DNA from: Candidatus Falkowbacteria bacterium | GTDB lineage: Bacteria > Patescibacteriota > Patescibacteriia > Patescibacteriales > GWE2-39-37 | Assembly: GCA_013336275.1 (NCBI GenBank) | Contig: JAAXUA010000005.1 | Span: 13,863-77,862 of the forward strand | Direction: 5' to 3' | DNA length: 64,000 nt | In this document: piece after piece, positions 8,815-41,360 of the stretch | Position numbering within the stretch: the first letter of the stretch is position 1 | How the letters are laid out: every line of letters starts with the position of its first letter | Translations under genes and position numbers: made by a program | The notes under the pieces: generated by a model | What the model saw: only the letters and a program-made list of their open reading frames with translations | Database searches by the model: none | Told to the model about the DNA's origin: nothing

Positions 8815-9051
8815 ATGGCAATCTTGCAGGCGGCAGTTCAAAGCTACACGGATTATTCAAGTGATGTCCACGAATTGCTGCAGTTCTGGGTGCCGGGCTG
8901 CGGCCTTGATGGTGGCGGTCTGGACGAGGACGAATGTCCGAATTGCTTCGGCGGAAATATCGGGACGATTTTCAGCGAATCAGGCGCGCAGCTCCAGTGT
9001 ACTGGCTGCGGCGCAACAGGCGCGGTGTTCGCACCGACGACAGGGAGGTAA
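8815..9051 (+). CDS. zinc-ribbon microprotein (78 aa), paralog of 9194..9433
   Basis: AAGGAGG 5 nt upstream; CPNC...CTGC four-Cys motif; shares W..PG.G-CPxC-x3-IGT...CxxC..G pattern with the third gene. Confidence 0.6.
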   Translation: MAILQAAVQSYTDYSSDVHELLQFWVPGCGLDGGGLDEDECPNCFGGNIGTIFSESGAQLQCTGCGATGAVFAPTTGR

Positions 9052-9053
9052 CC

Positions 9054-9197
9054 ATGGAAAGGTTGGATAATGATCAGTTAAGGACGGTTATGGCCCTTAG
9101 TCTGGCTGGCGGCAATCGTTCTAAGGCTGCGCAAGCCGAAGCGATACTCATCATTCGTGAGCAAGATCAACAAGACCAGCAAGGAGGCGGCAAATGA
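9054..9197 (+). CDS. 47-aa hypothetical protein (MERLDNDQLRTVMALSLAGGNRSKAAQAEAILIIREQDQQDQQGGGK)
   Basis: GGGAGG 5 nt upstream of ATG 9054, 2 nt after the previous stop; its stop overlaps the next start (ATGA at 9194-9197). Confidence 0.45.
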   Translation: MERLDNDQLRTVMALSLAGGNRSKAAQAEAILIIREQDQQDQQGGGK

Positions 9198-9433
9198 AAG
9201 GTCCCTATTTCGTAACAAACCCTGGATTGATGCCGCCGGTTGCGCACATCGCAGCGATGCCCGTTCCGGAAAAGATGTTCGAGAACTGGCGCAGCTGGTC
9301 GCCTGGAGACGGCGTCTGTCCGGCGTGCAACGGCACCCATATCGGAACCGAAGAAGTTATCAGCGGTGATTTGCGAGGCGAACGTCTCAGATGCAAGGAC
9401 TGCAACGCAGTCGGCGGAGCGAGCGTTTTCTGA
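9194..9433 (+). CDS. zinc-ribbon microprotein (79 aa), paralog of 8815..9051
   Basis: GGAGG 6 nt upstream; CPAC...CKDC four-Cys motif. Confidence 0.6.
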   Translation: MKGPYFVTNPGLMPPVAHIAAMPVPEKMFENWRSWSPGDGVCPACNGTHIGTEEVISGDLRGERLRCKDCNAVGGASVF

Positions 9434-10463: not shown

Positions 10464-11192
10464 ATGAAAAAAATAGCAATCATCGGCTTCGGGCGTTTCG
10501 GTGAGCTCTTAGCTGACATTTTGAAGAATCACGGACAAGTTCATATCATGAGCCAAAGCGGCCATTCCGGCGCCTTTCCGCTGATCGGCAAACAGCAGCT
10601 CGGGGAGATGGACTGGGTGATACCGGCCGTGCCGATCTCCGCACTGGAACAGACCTTGCAAGACATCGCTTCCGAGCTTAAGCCTGACGCCTTGGTGATG
10701 GACGTCTGCTCGGTCAAGGTGAAGCCGTGCGAATGGCTGTTCAAACATGTTCCGGCCGGAGTCGAGATTATCGGTTCACATCCCATGTTCGGGCCTGATA
10801 GCGCCAAGAACGGCCTCAAAGGTTTGCAAGTGGTCTTGTGCCCGTTGCGTGCCGCCGAGTCGACCGTCGAGGAGGTGCGTGAAGTGTTCAGAAAGCTGGA
10901 GTTGAAGATTATCGAAACGTCCGCCGACGAGCACGACCGCCAAGCTGCGAATTGTCTGGCCATGGTCCACTTTTTGGGCAGAGGCCTGGATGAGATGAAG
11001 TTGGAAAAGCAGGAGATAACCACCATGGGCTTCGAGCGCCTCTTGGCGGTCAACGAGACTGTCGCCAATGACACCTGGCAGCTGTTTTTGGACATGCAGT
11101 ATTATAATCCGTATGCTGCCGTCGCCCGCAAGGCGCTTGTGTCAGCGCTTGAAACTGTCGAGGCTCAAATTCTGGCGGACAAAAGGGAATAG
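10464..11192 (+). CDS. tyrA: prephenate dehydrogenase
   Basis: 242 aa; IAIIGFGRFG NAD fold, DVCSVK, GSHPMFGP motifs. Confidence 0.85.
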   Translation: MKKIAIIGFGRFGELLADILKNHGQVHIMSQSGHSGAFPLIGKQQLGEMDWVIPAVPISALEQTLQDIASELKPDALVMDVCSVKVKPCEWLFKHVPAGVEIIGSHPMFGPDSAKNGLKGLQVVLCPLRAAESTVEEVREVFRKLELKIIETSADEHDRQAANCLAMVHFLGRGLDEMKLEKQEITTMGFERLLAVNETVANDTWQLFLDMQYYNPYAAVARKALVSALETVEAQILADKRE

Positions 11193-11200
11193 TGATTTTC

Positions 11201-11229
11201 TTGCAATTATTTTTAGGCTTTGCTAAAGT
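11201..11229 (+). promoter_or_regulatory. sigma70-like promoter of the DUF62 leader
   Basis: TTGCAA (11201-11206), 17-nt spacer, TAAAGT (11224-11229). Confidence 0.45.
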
Positions 11230-11235
11230 AGCGCC

Positions 11236-11286
11236 ATGACAAAAACCTTACTGACAAATCCAGGCTTAATGATGATGCGCCCTTAG
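11236..11286 (+). CDS. candidate leaderless leader peptide MTKTLLTNPGLMMMRP (16 codons, three consecutive Met)
   Basis: ATG lies 7 nt after the -10 box, so it is predicted leaderless. ATGATGATG at 11269-11277; the stop TAG overlaps the loop/3' arm of the first terminator hairpin. Confidence 0.3.
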   Translation: MTKTLLTNPGLMMMRP

Positions 11287-11299
11287 GGCGCCGGTTTTT
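11277..11299 (+). terminator. terminator/attenuator hairpin 1
   Basis: GCGCCC (11277-11282)/GGGCGC (11286-11291) then T5 at 11295-11299. Confidence 0.5.
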
Positions 11300-11317
11300 G
11301 CTTGCTTTCGCTTTTCA

Positions 11318-11357
11318 AACCGGGCCATTCTTCTGAAGAACGGTCCGGTTTTTTTGT
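11318..11357 (+). terminator. terminator/attenuator hairpin 2
   Basis: About 14-bp stem AACCGGGCC.TTCTT/AAGAA.GGTCCGGTT followed by a T9 run. Confidence 0.65.
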
Positions 11358-11386
11358 TCTAAATTTTTTTGAGGCACTTGTGAATG

Positions 11387-11458
11387 GCCAAGCTTTTGGA
11401 ACTCGATTTTTGCTTAGATGGGTACATATGCGCAAAAATCGAGTTCCAAAAGCTTGGC
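11387..11458. repeat. perfect 27-bp inverted repeat with 18-nt spacer
   Basis: GCCAAGCTTTTGGAACTCGATTTTTGC (11387-11413) is the exact reverse complement of 11432-11458; ends 40 nt upstream of ATG 11499. Confidence 0.9.
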
Positions 11459-11498
11459 TGGCGCAATAATATATTATTTATTTTTTAAAGAAAAAATT

Positions 11499-12287
11499 AT
11501 GAATCTGACAATCATTAACGACTGCCGTGACGACAATGCCAAAGTCCGGCAACTGGCCCGGGCCAAGAGCCTGATCGGCCACGAGGCCGCATTCATCGGA
11601 GTAGCTAACGACCTGGAGGCAGCAGGCTGTATCATCGACGTGCTTGATGCTTATGGCGAGGCGGGCGGTACGATCATTGCCAACGTCGCGCCGCGCAACG
11701 GCGGAGGCAAGCGCTGGCCCAACGGTACGCCGTTCGCTTACGCTCGCATCGGCAACAGCCTGGTCGTGGCCTCGATCAGCGGGCTGACTTGGTCACTCGT
11801 CCGCAAGCTCGGGTTGGCCCGATCGATCGAGGTGATGGATATCCCGACCGTGCTCAAGGAATTGGCCGAGGCAGGCGTCCTGGATTCTGATCTGATCGAA
11901 CCGATTACCAAGAGCCAGTTCAGAAGTTATGAGTTCTTGCCCCGCGTCGCGGCCTTCTTGCTTTCCGGCGGTGCAGTTCCGAGCGAAACCGTCTCTCTCG
12001 ACGAATTGGATCAGGCGGAACCGGCTGTCTGGTGGGCGGATAATTTCGGCAACTGCAAAACCAGTTTACTGGCGCAAGAGGTTTCGTTTAAGGCAGGGAG
12101 CAGCGTAAGTACTATCTGGGGAGAATTGCCAGGGTATGAACGGCTCAAGGACGTGCCTGACGGCGAGCCGGCCATCATCATCGGCAGCTCCGGTTTCGGG
12201 TCAGCGCGCTTTCTTGAATTGGTTGTCCAAGGCGCAAGCGCGGCCCAGCATTTCGGGGTAAAAAGCGGCCAGAGCATCCTCGCCTAA
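11499..12287 (+). CDS. DUF62 / SAM hydroxide adenosyltransferase (chlorinase-fluorinase) family protein
   Basis: 262 aa from internal ATG 11499 (the track ORF starts at 11418 inside the inverted repeat); ANVAPRNGG, WWADNFGNCKTS (DxFGNxxT) and SSGFGSARFLELVVQGASAA C-terminal motifs. Confidence 0.7.
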   Translation: MNLTIINDCRDDNAKVRQLARAKSLIGHEAAFIGVANDLEAAGCIIDVLDAYGEAGGTIIANVAPRNGGGKRWPNGTPFAYARIGNSLVVASISGLTWSLVRKLGLARSIEVMDIPTVLKELAEAGVLDSDLIEPITKSQFRSYEFLPRVAAFLLSGGAVPSETVSLDELDQAEPAVWWADNFGNCKTSLLAQEVSFKAGSSVSTIWGELPGYERLKDVPDGEPAIIIGSSGFGSARFLELVVQGASAAQHFGVKSGQSILA

Positions 12288-12289
12288 TC

Positions 12290-12317
12290 TTGATTTTTGG
12301 CGGCTTAATGCTACAAT
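12290..12317 (+). promoter_or_regulatory. sigma70-like promoter
   Basis: TTGATT (12290-12295), 16-nt spacer, TACAAT (12312-12317). Confidence 0.5.
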
Positions 12318-12323
12318 ATAGGT

Positions 12324-12594
12324 GTAGGAAACAACGTTCTTACCAGAAAAGTTCCACCGAAGACTGATGCAAGTTTTGGATCAAACTATAAGACATTGGC
12401 AGGCCGTTTTAGTCCCGGGCTGAGGCTCGGTCTATAGGCCCACAAGGGTGAACTGGCGAGAGACGGATTGTTCAGAGGAATCCGAGTAATCCGTCACGAA
12501 CCAAATTTCGCTTCGAGCGGCTTGTCCGCACGGCGCGAAAACCTATTTCTCTCTTTAGCCAATTCTTGATCAGCCATTTGGTGGAACTTTTTTG
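12324..12594 (+). ncRNA. structured non-coding RNA of unknown class (about 270 nt)
   Basis: No ORF. Four nested helices: AAAGTTCCACC 12348-58/GGTGGAACTTT 12580-90, CTGAT 12364-68/ATCAG 12569-73, ATTGGC 12395-400/GCCAAT 12558-63, GCCGT 12403-07/ACGGC 12530-34. Inner 8-bp GACGGATT/AATCCGTC hairpin; terminal U-tract. Confidence 0.5.
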
Positions 12595-12606
12595 CATATG
12601 AAGATT

Positions 12607-12677
12607 CGGGGTATCGTATAGTGGCAGTACGCGTGGCTGGGGGTCATGTAGCTGCGGTTCGATTCCGCATACCCCGA
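12607..12677 (+). tRNA. tRNA-Pro (anticodon GGG)
   Basis: Cloverleaf folded by hand: acceptor CGGGGTA/TACCCCG, anticodon loop CTGGGGG, T-arm TGCGG-TTCGATT-CCGCA, discriminator A; CCA not encoded. Confidence 0.9.
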
Positions 12678-12688
12678 CAGGGAAATGT

Positions 12689-12719: not shown

Positions 12720-12814
12720 GTTAATATTGACAAAAGCATTTAAAAGTGGTATGGTCATTTTTCCGCTGTAAAGCAGGCTCATTCTAAAAACCACCCACCA
12801 AAGGAGGGCGTATT

Positions 12815-14047
12815 ATGAGAGGAAATAGCATCAAGAGATTGGTAGATATGCAGGGAGTTATCGCGATGGTGTTGGCTGGCGGTCGCGGTGAAAGGCTGAT
12901 GCCTTTGACGGCCGAAAGAGCCAAACCGTCGGTCCCGATAGCTGGCAAGTATCGGATCATCGATTTCATCATGAACTCGCTGGTCAATTCCGGATTGAAC
13001 GAAATCAGAGTCCTGATCCAGTTTAAGTCCCAGCCTCTGTACCGCCACATCACCGCCCTGTATCCGTCGGCCCCGATCCACAACCGTTTTATCGAACCGG
13101 TGCCGGCTCAGATGCGGGTCGGCCAAGGATGGTATTCCGGTACCGCAGATGCCGTATATCAGAACAGCTACATGCTGGAAGATTTCGGTTTCGAAGTAGC
13201 GGCCATATTCTCGGGTGACCACATCTTTGTCGTCGACGTCAGCCAGATGTACGAGTATCACTGCCATAAAGAGGCAGACTTCACCATCGCGGCGATACCG
13301 ACCCCGGTCGAACAAGCGGCCGGACAACTGGGCGTCATTGTCGTCGACGAGCAGGACCGGATCATCGGCTTCGATGAGAAGCCGGCCGTGCCCAAAGAGA
13401 TTCCTGGCAAACCGGGCTGGTGTTACGCCTCGATGGGCAACTATCTGGCGAACATCCCCATCCTTACCGAACTGTTGAAGGAAGACGCTCAAAACGAGGA
13501 ATCAAGCCATGATTTCGGCAGAGATGTCATTCCGATGATGCTCGACCGTGGCCTGGCTGTCTATGCTTATGATTTCCACACCAACAAGATCGCCGGTCAG
13601 GAGGAGCCTTACTGGCGCGACCTCGGAACGATCGCTTCGTACCACGCTGCCAACATGGATGTCTGCAGCGTCGATCCGGTTTTCAACCTGTACAACAGGA
13701 TGTGGCCCTTGCGTTCGCCGGCCGATAACTCGCCGCCCCACAAAGGCGGACTGGGCTCCCGGCTCGACAACTACCTCATCAGCGGCGGCTGCATCGTCAA
13801 CAAGTCGGAAATCTACAGTTCCGTACTGAGCCCGTTCGTCCGCGTCGAAGCCTCTCAAGTCATGGAGAGCGTCATCTTCTCTAATGTGAACATCGGTCCG
13901 GGATCCAGGCTCAAACGCTGCATCGTCGACAAGAACGTGCGCATCCCTCCGGGAACGATGATCGGCTTCAGCGCCGAAGAAGACTCCGCACGCGGCCTGG
14001 CTGTCGTTGACGGCATTACGGTCGTTCCCAAGAGCTTCCAATTCTGA
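12815..14047 (+). CDS. glgC: glucose-1-phosphate adenylyltransferase
   Basis: 410 aa; VLAGGRGERLMPLTAERAKPSVPIAGKYRIIDF N-terminal signature, left-handed beta-helix C-terminus; AAAGGAGGG upstream. Confidence 0.92.
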   Translation: MRGNSIKRLVDMQGVIAMVLAGGRGERLMPLTAERAKPSVPIAGKYRIIDFIMNSLVNSGLNEIRVLIQFKSQPLYRHITALYPSAPIHNRFIEPVPAQMRVGQGWYSGTADAVYQNSYMLEDFGFEVAAIFSGDHIFVVDVSQMYEYHCHKEADFTIAAIPTPVEQAAGQLGVIVVDEQDRIIGFDEKPAVPKEIPGKPGWCYASMGNYLANIPILTELLKEDAQNEESSHDFGRDVIPMMLDRGLAVYAYDFHTNKIAGQEEPYWRDLGTIASYHAANMDVCSVDPVFNLYNRMWPLRSPADNSPPHKGGLGSRLDNYLISGGCIVNKSEIYSSVLSPFVRVEASQVMESVIFSNVNIGPGSRLKRCIVDKNVRIPPGTMIGFSAEEDSARGLAVVDGITVVPKSFQF

Positions 14048-40091: not shown

Positions 40092-41360
40092 ATGAATAAG
40101 CTTATCCAAATTTGGAAGGCCAGAGACTTGAGGAACAACATCCTTTATGTTTTGGGCATGTTGGTCATATTCCGCATGGCTGCCCACGTTCCAGTTCCGG
40201 GAGTCGATGTCAAGGAATTGCAGGCATTCATGAATTCGAACCAGATTCTCGGTCTCATGAATCTCTTTTCCGGCGGCGGCATGGAGAACTTCTCCGTCAT
40301 CATGATGAGCGTCGGTCCGTACATCACCGCTTCGATCATCTTCCAGCTTTTGGGCATGATCATTCCTTCTTTGGAAGAAATGAACAAGGAAGAGGCGGGA
40401 CGGCAGAAAATCAATATGTGGACCCGCTGGCTGACCGTACCGATGGCTGTTCTACAGGGCTATGGCATGATCACTATCTTGCGCCAGTCTAACCGCGATA
40501 TCATCACCGCAACCAATCCTTTCGATATTTTCGTCATGCTGCTCACTATCACCGCCGGCACCGTCTTCGTGATGTGGCTCGGTGAGCTGATCAGCGAAAA
40601 GAAGGTTGGCAACGGAATTTCCTTGATCATCTTCGCTGGCATCGTCGCCCGCATCCCGGTCTCTTTGCAGCAGATCATGGTCAATTTCGACCAGTCGCAG
40701 CTGTTCACCTTGCTGTGGTTCCTGGCTATCGCCATAACCACCATTATCGGTGTTGTCATCATCAGCGAGGGCCAGCGCAACGTGCCGGTGCAATACGCCA
40801 AGCAGATGCGAGGTAACCGGATGTTCGGCGGTTCGACCAGCCACTTGCCTTTGCGAGTGAACATGGCCGGCGTCATCCCGATCATCTTCGCTGTTTCAGT
40901 CGTGCTGTTCCCGCCGATGGTCGCCCAGTTCTTCATCCAGGCCAAGACCCAGTTCATCGCCAACGCAGCCCAGTGGGTCTATCAGATATTCCAGAACCAG
41001 CTGTTCTATGCCGTAATCTATTTCATTCTGGTCTTCGCCTTCACTTTCTTTTATACCGAAGTCGTTTTTCATCCGAGCCAGATCGCTGAGAATTTGCAGA
41101 AGCAAGGCGGCTTCATTCCTGGCATCCGCCCGGGACGTCCGACTGCCGAGTATCTCGCTCAGACTACCTATAAGATCATCCTGGCTGGCGCTCTATTCTT
41201 GAGCATCATCGCCATTCTGCCTTTGATCATGCGCTACTTTACCAATATCCAGTCATTGGCCATCGGCGGCACCAGCTTGCTGATCGTCGTATCGGTCGTT
41301 ATCGAGACGGTCAAGCAGATCGAGTCGCAGCTGACCATGCGCGAATACGAAGGAGTTTAA
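40092..41360 (+). CDS. secY: preprotein translocase subunit SecY
   Basis: 422 aa, 10 TM-like segments; LRNNILYVLGMLVIFRMAAHVPVPGV, GISLIIFAGI. Confidence 0.96.
   Translation: MNKLIQIWKARDLRNNILYVLGMLVIFRMAAHVPVPGVDVKELQAFMNSNQILGLMNLFSGGGMENFSVIMMSVGPYITASIIFQLLGMIIPSLEEMNKEEAGRQKINMWTRWLTVPMAVLQGYGMITILRQSNRDIITATNPFDIFVMLLTITAGTVFVMWLGELISEKKVGNGISLIIFAGIVARIPVSLQQIMVNFDQSQLFTLLWFLAIAITTIIGVVIISEGQRNVPVQYAKQMRGNRMFGGSTSHLPLRVNMAGVIPIIFAVSVVLFPPMVAQFFIQAKTQFIANAAQWVYQIFQNQLFYAVIYFILVFAFTFFYTEVVFHPSQIAENLQKQGGFIPGIRPGRPTAEYLAQTTYKIILAGALFLSIIAILPLIMRYFTNIQSLAIGGTSLLIVVSVVIETVKQIESQLTMREYEGV

Follow-up and report, generated by a model that had tools for sequence, protein, structure and literature searches.

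The question raised by this locus is whether a short methionine-rich open reading frame (ORF) and the hairpins around it, which lie between a short prephenate dehydrogenase gene (tyrA) and a divergent DUF62-like gene, form a switch that regulates the second gene or simply mark the place where transcription of the first one ends. The locus is part of a 64,000-nucleotide stretch (the window) of contig JAAXUA010000005.1 from a Candidatus Falkowbacteria bacterium, one of the Patescibacteria; coordinates are those of the window, and the features of the element lie on its plus strand. The interval is very probably a ribosome-mediated leader-peptide transcription attenuator, which would read methionine supply through Met-tRNA and control the DUF62-like gene, a putative S-adenosylmethionine (SAM)-cleaving gene. 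Attenuation of this kind had been proposed for the locus in an earlier note made from the sequence, and the proposal is supported here by the Met-rich leader, the terminator, a competing antiterminator and the conservation of the arrangement with the DUF62-like gene. Ribosome-mediated attenuation is a textbook mechanism, and the trp, his and phe leaders share the same logic of stalling and antitermination. Methionine is usually sensed by other means, namely SAM riboswitches, T-boxes or MetJ-type repressors. Patescibacteria, to our knowledge, are uncultured or hard to grow, and we know of almost nothing that has been learned about their gene regulation.

The upstream neighbour, tyrA (10464-11192, stop at 11192, Pfam PDH_N), is followed by a -35-like hexamer TTGCAA (11201-11206), identified by reading the sequence base by base, and 17 nt past it by an extended -10 element, TGcTAAAGT (11221-11229), in which TG occupies 11221-11222 and the hexamer TAAAGT 11224-11229. 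Six nucleotides (agcgcc) separate TAAAGT from an ATG at 11236. This promoter scores 8/12, below the scan threshold of 9, and was hence not listed by the scan; it is taken as real because it is conserved and carries the TGn extension, not because of its score. The ATG opens a leader ORF of 16 codons, MTKTLLTNPGLMMMRP plus a stop (11236-11286, with TAG at 11284-11286), whose codons 12-14 (11269-11277) are three consecutive Met codons. These are the candidate regulatory codons and are invariant in the close clade of relatives described below. The promoter, start codon, ORF and Met run are thus all present as the earlier note had described them, and its placement of the transcription start at or next to the A of ATG 11236 draws its support from the geometry of the promoter. 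No Shine-Dalgarno sequence was seen ahead of this ATG when the sequence was read base by base. The leader of 264 nt folds at z = -9.0 relative to shuffles. Small ORFs (8-45 codons, both strands) with at least three Met in seven codons number two in the window, the leader ORF and another at 41168-41230 on the minus strand; a chance origin of the leader is ruled out because of the comparative statistics across loci that are given below. No further targets of a Met leader were found in the 64-kb window.

The Met run abuts a hairpin, GCGCCC-TTA-GGGCGC (hairpin 1, 11277-11291), with arms at 11277-11282 and 11286-11291, a TTA loop, and then CGG and a run of five T (T5) at 11295-11299; the stop codon of the leader ORF runs from the loop into the first base of the 3' arm. 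It is the only terminator-like site called by the scan. A second and stronger hairpin with the features of an intrinsic terminator (hairpin 2, inverted repeat I2) was placed at 11317-11355, with arms of 17 nt at 11317-11333 and 11335-11351 that are 88% complementary, a predicted energy of -19.6 kcal/mol and a T7 run at 11349-11355. The two had been described as tandem terminators, a description which stands for hairpin 2 but not for hairpin 1 as a separate terminator. The most fitting role for hairpin 1 and its T-run is that of the 1:2 element (anti-antiterminator, possibly also a pause site) of a four-segment attenuator, because its 3' half and T-run mimic the terminator 3' arm and can pair with the 5' arm. 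The near-copy is apparent as a direct repeat (D5), in which CCGGTTTTT occurs at 11291-99, in segment 2 (GGGCGCCGGTTTT, 11286-11298), and again at 11345-53, in the terminator 3' arm. Segment 2 would be the 5' strand of the antiterminator, and segment 3 (AAACCGGGCCA, 11317-11327) is common to antiterminator and terminator, the latter being formed by segments 3 and 4.

The predicted energies are in keeping with this assignment. Hairpin 1 alone was calculated at -11.2 kcal/mol and the 1:2 duplex at -13.7 kcal/mol (p = 0.02 vs shuffles), and the 2:3 duplex in the window reaches -16.1 kcal/mol, where shuffles average -9.9 (p = 0.015). The RNA was also folded with a ribosome footprint blocked and with sequence available only up to 11336, at which point segment 4 is incomplete. 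A ribosome placed at the Met codons allows a duplex of 11286-98 and 11317-27 (-16.5 kcal/mol), while one placed at the stop codon leaves structure of just -3.4 kcal/mol, and the terminator is therefore free to form. In full-length RNA without a ribosome, a further 5' strand termed P0 (CAAAAACC, 11240-11247), identified from inverted repeat I15 and from minimum-free-energy folds, pairs with GGTTTTTG (11293-11300) around hairpin 1.

From this anatomy and from the comparison of loci, the following order of events may be proposed. Transcription would start at or next to the A of ATG 11236, giving a leader mRNA with no 5' untranslated region (UTR), and a ribosome would load on the 5' AUG; hairpin 1 and its U-run may make RNA polymerase pause, giving the ribosome time to arrive. 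When charged elongator tRNA-Met is scarce, the ribosome would stall with codons 12-14 (11269-11277) in the A site, covering segment 1 (11277-11282) and leaving segment 2 (11286-11298) free to pair with segment 3 (11317-11327) before segment 4 has been transcribed. Formation of the terminator would thereby be blocked, and transcription would run through a third hairpin (see below) into the gene. When Met-tRNA is plentiful, the ribosome would reach the TAG at 11284-11286 and mask segment 2, the 3:4 hairpin would form and transcription would stop at T7. Without a ribosome, P0 (11240-47 with 11293-300) and hairpin 1 would sequester segment 2, so that termination would be expected in this case too. 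The induced enzyme would reclaim methionine from SAM during methionine shortage, because its fold is that of enzymes which convert SAM to adenosine and L-methionine.

The unit was then compared with the contigs of close relatives, defined as those encoding proteins 88% and 82% identical to the DUF62-like protein of the window (L002, L004 and L005). The upstream gene is tyrA in L002, while in L004 and L005 it is an aminotransferase gene with its own hairpin and T-run terminator. The -35 is conserved as TTGCAA or TTGCAT in all three despite this difference, and the promoter-like site of the L004/L005 type reads TTGCAT, a 16-nt spacer, TGtTAAGCT, 6 nt and ATG. The leader ORF is retained as MTKTLPTNSGLMMMRP, MTKSLQTNSGLMMMRP and MIKTLQTNPALMMMRP, its frame staying open, and hairpins 1 and 2 are conserved, although the T-run of hairpin 1 in L004 consists of just four T. 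By our reading of the alignments, the substitutions in L004 and L005 preserve the P0 pairing through G-U wobbles. Five of the 10 variable sites of the ORF are third-position synonymous, a pattern which, being drawn from four sequences, is suggestive of coding. Since the promoter, ORF and hairpins are kept behind different upstream genes, the unit belongs to the downstream gene and not to tyrA. Within the window genome, hairpin 2 probably also ends read-through transcripts from tyrA, as no other terminator lies between them.

An nhmmer profile of the window-type core element, run against 85 loci, gave matches in the close clade only, and the distant leaders were therefore sought by their features and not by sequence. 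A metagenome scan with ATGATGATGCG-N7-11-CGCCGGTTTT returned 14 loci and no new close relatives for covariation: 13 of the 14 were rejected as chance matches inside coding regions of high-GC organisms, and the remaining one, L099, is of the L002 type.

A total of 80 genome loci bearing an ortholog was examined, of which one (L006) is the L002 contig and the other 79 encode proteins of 44-57% identity. The motif ATGATGATG was found no more than 400 nt upstream of the gene in 21 of these 79 distant loci, against an expectation of ~0.0015 per locus. Under a neutral criterion (an ATG ORF of 8-45 codons with at least three Met in any seven codons), a leader was identified upstream in 28/79 distant loci, plus L015. 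The same criterion selected 1/79 of the reverse complements of the upstream regions and 2/77 of the regions downstream of the gene (Fisher p ~7e-9 and ~7e-8, respectively). The check that the earlier note had called for, namely conservation of the mini-ORF and its Met run upstream of DUF62 orthologs, thus gave a strongly positive result: the ORF and both hairpins are kept in L002, L004 and L005, and a Met-rich ORF with a terminator behind it is present in 28-29 of the 79 distant loci. Small ORFs with four Met in seven codons were found nowhere else among the 4110 small ORFs on both strands of the 422 kb of loci, and no other targets of a Met leader were found in these 422 kb.

The distant leader ORFs have 16-30 codons and 3-9 Met codons and are unrelated in sequence to the window ORF (for example MNVKAQIEMMMAMMTLKNEGTFSYI, MSTKTATMMMRMMTSTQEGGFSFR, MFNMDNKNSMMMMMMRMMNLFHVG and MRDTFAVMMMSMMMAGRLGPVRSRA). 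Clustering at 70% identity divides the 32 leaders into 20 groups, and Met makes up 22% of their non-initiator residues. Where Met clusters are interrupted, the offsets between ATGATG occurrences always differ by multiples of 3, as is not expected of an RNA motif, and these are therefore read as codons. The distant loci with a leader have many different upstream neighbours, on either strand.

The geometry of the switch also recurs. For a test of spacing, the leader start was taken as the first ATG in frame with the Met run, no other feature being used to choose it. In 16/31 leaders a TANNNT hexamer ends exactly 6 nt ahead of this ATG, in 20/31 it ends 6-8 nt ahead, and 11 of the 16 hexamers at the 6-nt spacing carry a TGn extension, other offsets being scattered. 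This supports a transcription start on or next to the A of the ATG, so that the leaders would be leaderless mRNAs. Of 33 leaders examined, 32 have a GC hairpin with a T-run downstream of the ORF; none was found in L026 under the criteria used, and L049 is ambiguous. The distance from the end of the terminator to the start codon of the gene has a median of 32 nt and a minimum of 11, which in most loci leaves no room for a separate promoter, and the gene is therefore transcribed through the terminator.

The segment between the Met cluster and the terminator mimics the terminator 3' arm, as in L079, where GAAGGCGGTTTTTC may be compared with GAAGGCCGTTTTTC. The antiterminator duplex is stronger than those of 200 shuffles (p <= 0.05) in 24/31 loci and is similar in energy to the terminator. 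This test rests on the shuffle control, the cross-locus control means being invalid (one empty zone, L049) and further confounded by GCCTTC-type arms that loci have in common. Measured from the first base of the last Met codon, segment 2 begins at a median distance of 14 nt (range 10-25), and its end falls a median of 5 nt ahead of the stop codon (range -17 to +14); it would therefore lie just past the edge of a Met-stalled ribosome, yet beneath a terminating one. This spacing matches the design of trp-type attenuation. An apparently leaderless ORF with a Met cluster and a terminator-mimicking segment near its stop is thus seen to recur upstream of orthologs in many Parcubacteria-type lineages.

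The regulated gene (11499-12287) encodes a divergent DUF62/SAM hydroxide adenosyltransferase-like protein of 262 amino acids, with hundreds of homologs that are essentially all from Patescibacteria. Membership of the DUF62 family, which the earlier note had assumed, is borne out by the C-terminal domain and by the fold, but not by the N-terminal Pfam domain. SAM_HAT_C was detected in the window protein (E = 1.4e-7) and in 22/22 family members (best E = 7e-10), and the NCBIfam model for (R)-SAM hydrolase gave 19.7 bits, far below its cut-off of 350. An AlphaFold2 model of the protein (predicted local distance difference test, pLDDT, 93; predicted template modelling score, pTM, 0.91) was searched with Foldseek, and the top 11 PDB matches were all from the DUF62/SalL family (TM-score 0.60-0.68, E 3.5e-11 to 1.2e-8). 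The two-domain fold is matched over its full length by PH0463, TM-family DUF62 proteins, MJ1651 and SalL, so that the modelled protein appears to have the same fold as the DUF62/SAM hydroxide adenosyltransferases and the SalL/FlA halogenases (PDB 2wr8, 1wu8, 2zbv, 6ryz, 22uy), and a C-terminal D-x-F-G-N region is shared with the DUF62/SalL enzymes. Characterised members of this family split SAM into adenosine (or 5'-halo-adenosine) and L-methionine. We infer from the modelled fold that the present branch may likewise release Met from SAM, and the Met-sensing leader is circumstantial support for this, as is the gene arrangement in L049.

In L049, a Parcubacteria locus, a methionyl-tRNA synthetase (MetRS) gene lies 27 nt downstream of the DUF62-like gene (Pfam tRNA-synt_1g, E = 1e-96), and the leader (MFNMDNKNSMMMMMMRMMNLFHVG) has eight non-initiator Met codons, six in a row and then two, the longest Met run among the leaders. 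MetRS was found directly downstream in this locus only, and the arrangement suggests that the Met-responsive unit may be larger in some lineages. Among the loci, most of which are monocistronic, no conserved operon partners were found behind the gene. As a separate observation, L046 has an ORF of 143 amino acids, 4 nt downstream of the DUF62-like gene, in which a TatD N-terminal fragment is joined to a tRNA-ligase anticodon-binding domain; it may be what is left of a metG-tatD neighbourhood, or an assembly error in one. The DUF62-like gene of the window has no Shine-Dalgarno sequence ahead of it (AAAGAAAAAATTATG, 11480-11501). The next protein gene, a glgC-like gene at 12815, has a strong one (AAAGGAGGGCGTATTATG, 12795-12817), and initiation signals are therefore heterogeneous in this genome.

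Other explanations of these data were considered. One is that the ORF is translated but acts through its product, a Met-rich nascent peptide or micropeptide that would be either a SAM- or Met-sensing arrest peptide or functional in itself (e.g., metal-binding). Arrest peptides responsive to amino acids or SAM have been described, TnaC sensing Trp and plant CGS1 sensing SAM, and many of the leaders share a loose 'MMM-x-MM-T...(E/R/G)G' pattern. The peptides are, however, not conserved outside the Met cluster and vary between 16 and 30 codons in length, and the window peptide has just two residues past its Met run. The C-terminal residues of the leaders, which are weakly conserved, map to the nucleotides of segments 1 and 2 and are thus explained by RNA pairing, and the geometry of terminator and antiterminator fits stalling at the level of codons. 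An active peptide is thus considered improbable. CGS1 is cited in PMC5587730.

A second possibility is that the AUG repeats act as RNA, in a riboswitch or small RNA that would pair with the AUC-AUC Ile codons of the gene or bind a ligand or protein. Riboswitches that sense SAM are common for Met and SAM genes, the leader is highly structured (z = -9), and TTAATGAT (11266-11273) is perfectly complementary to ATCATTAA (11511-11518) within the conserved IIND codons (I16). Pairing of this kind was rejected, since ATCAT* is used for the Ile-Ile pair in 19% of the loci with a leader versus 56% of those without, the opposite of what it predicts. Moreover, the AUG triplets are always in one frame, which opens at an ATG 6 nt past the -10 hexamer, and their number and pattern of interruption vary in the manner of leader peptides. 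The Met run is not embedded in a conserved structure of the aptamer type, and no Rfam leader or riboswitch matched even at E <= 10, which makes a non-coding element very doubtful.

That the hairpins merely terminate the upstream tyrA operon and the mini-ORF is a chance frame can practically be set aside: the absence of any terminator other than the hairpins between the tyrA stop (11192) and hairpin 1, with tyrA read-through probably ending at hairpin 2, and a window promoter of only 8/12 speak for it, but the unit is kept in L004 and L005 behind a different gene with its own terminator, Met-rich ORFs with a terminator recur in 28-29 distant loci with varied neighbours on either strand, and ORFs with four Met in seven codons occur nowhere else in 422 kb. 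The view that these are simply tyrA terminators, which the earlier note had kept as its alternative, thus fails as a sole explanation on the context in L004 and L005 and on the distant loci.

Several points weigh against attenuation by Met-tRNA supply. The support for it consists of sequence and computation, the organisms being uncultured, and we know of no demonstration of leaderless translation in Patescibacteria. A shortage of methionine also limits the charging of initiator tRNA, which could blunt the response and is a common argument against Met attenuators. Full-length minimum-free-energy folds retain the terminator in every masked state, and the argument for a switch is therefore a kinetic, co-transcriptional one, as in the classical systems. 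The 1:2 pairing beats shuffles in only 7/31 loci, though it is clear in the window clade. Approximately 60% of the orthologous loci have no leader; these loci are largely Microgenomates-type, and the gene there closely follows another gene or comes after tRNA genes. In the window, 150 nt (including the third hairpin and an AT-rich stretch) separate the terminator from the gene, and the AT-rich stretch at 11460-11498 may hold a second promoter. As regards the enzyme, SAM_HAT_N was not detected by Pfam in any of the 22 family members, even at E <= 10, and the structural matches to characterised DUF62 enzymes have only 15-19% identity. Archaeal DUF62 homologs have been reported to prefer the inactive (R)-SAM epimer (bioRxiv 10.1101/2025.08.29.672840).

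In its design the proposed attenuator resembles the trpL, hisL, pheL, thrL, leuL and ilvL leaders of Proteobacteria, which likewise have a short ORF with a cluster of codons for one amino acid and an intrinsic terminator before the gene. In these classical systems, as is proposed here, a ribosome halted at the regulatory codons leaves a 2:3 antiterminator free to form, whereas one at the stop codon covers it, and the 1:2 hairpin comes just after the regulatory codons, as it does in the window. The present element differs from them in that methionine would be sensed, the ORF is apparently leaderless and not led by a Shine-Dalgarno sequence, the host belongs to the Patescibacteria (Candidate Phyla Radiation, CPR), and the regulated gene is a single catabolic or salvage-type enzyme in place of a biosynthetic operon. 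No sequence or covariance-model match to the Trp, His, Leu or Thr leaders of Rfam was found here.

SAM riboswitches (SAM-I to SAM-VI and the type for SAM and S-adenosylhomocysteine, SAM/SAH) and Met-specific T-boxes are, like the element proposed here, cis-acting 5' leaders that tie Met or SAM status to read-through of a terminator. They sense SAM or uncharged tRNA-Met by RNA without translation, whereas the sensor here would be a translating ribosome. At the gathering score, Rfam identified only four tRNAs in the 64-kb window, and a search of 11150-11560 relaxed to E <= 10 matched none of the leader, riboswitch or T-box families. At this relaxed threshold, hairpins 2 and 3 gave weak, sub-threshold matches of the hairpin type (mostly microRNA models, with a few small RNA, small nucleolar RNA and long non-coding RNA models), and a weak small RNA-model match spans 11203-11348 (E = 3.5, 11.7 bits vs a cut-off of 100 bits).

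A partial parallel exists in the polycysteine leaderless short ORFs of mycobacteria (the 'Cys ribulon' of Canestrari et al.), at which stalling in the run is reported to raise the expression of downstream genes of Cys metabolism (bioRxiv 10.1101/834739). The output described there is translational, the stalled ribosomes blocking a structure that sequesters a downstream ribosome-binding site (bioRxiv 10.1101/834739). Both systems have a short ORF as first cistron and a run of codons for one sulfur amino acid, and the ORF described here would, like the mycobacterial ones, be leaderless with a 5' AUG. They differ in amino acid, phylum and target, and in the output, which in the present case would be a hairpin and U-tract terminator with an antiterminator. 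Unmasking of a ribosome-binding site does not describe the element, in which the competing structure is a terminator, with 150 nt between it and the gene in the window and a median of 32 nt in the other loci.

No description of a methionine leader peptide or of this Patescibacteria element was found in Rfam or in the literature searched, the coverage of which is incomplete, so that an earlier report is possible. There is a reasonable case that this is the first methionine-specific leader-peptide attenuator. On this view, Parcubacteria-type Patescibacteria would have an old and widespread sensor built of Met codons, which is leaderless and serves a divergent DUF62-like enzyme alone. Translation initiation has its own requirement for methionine, which makes an attenuator based on Met codons unusual, and the existence of one would constrain how such switches work. 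If the reading is correct, organisms with reduced genomes that are probably Met auxotrophs would reclaim methionine from SAM when Met-tRNA runs short, and a methionine-shortage signal would be attached to a large, divergent branch with the DUF62/SAM-hydrolase fold, a first regulatory clue to its physiological role that points to recovery of Met from SAM. The element would also be indirect evidence for leaderless translation and for coupling of transcription and translation in Patescibacteria, in which it offers a concrete, sequence-defined and testable cis-regulatory device. The leaders are so far unannotated, and the feature criteria used here could serve to annotate them.

A third hairpin in the same interval, not mentioned in the earlier note, would be part of the 5' UTR of read-through transcripts. 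Hairpin 3 is a long stem (11387-11458, with flanks at 11378-11468) whose arms of 34 nt lie at 11387-11420 and 11425-11458 (I1), and as it has no T-run it is not a terminator. Its apical loop is conserved (GCTTAGAyGrGTACrTATGCGC), and its arms differ among the window, L002 and L004 yet remain complementary, with eight compensated pairs across these three sequences. It is absent from L005, confined to the close clade and single-copy in the window; no Rfam family and no match in viral contigs were found for it, and the distant loci have no comparable long hairpin between terminator and gene. It may act in the read-through mRNA as a site of processing or protein binding, or as a determinant of stability.

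Two further features of the window were noted. Downstream of the DUF62-like gene, on the plus strand at 12290-12600, a promoter-like TTGATT-16-TGcTACAAT (12290-12317) precedes ~280 nt in which no ORF is plausible; these fold at z = -6.0 vs shuffles and end just before a tRNA-Pro(GGG) at 12607-12678. This stretch has no Rfam match even at E <= 1 and may be an unannotated structured RNA. Upstream, between the aminotransferase and chorismate mutase genes, two small ORFs on the plus strand (8815-9051 and 9194-9433; 78 and 79 amino acids) carry paired CxxC motifs (CPNC...CTGC and CPAC...CKDC) and, judged by these motifs, look like paralogous zinc-ribbon mini-proteins. Similar small ORFs were called at the equivalent place in L001, L002 and L004.

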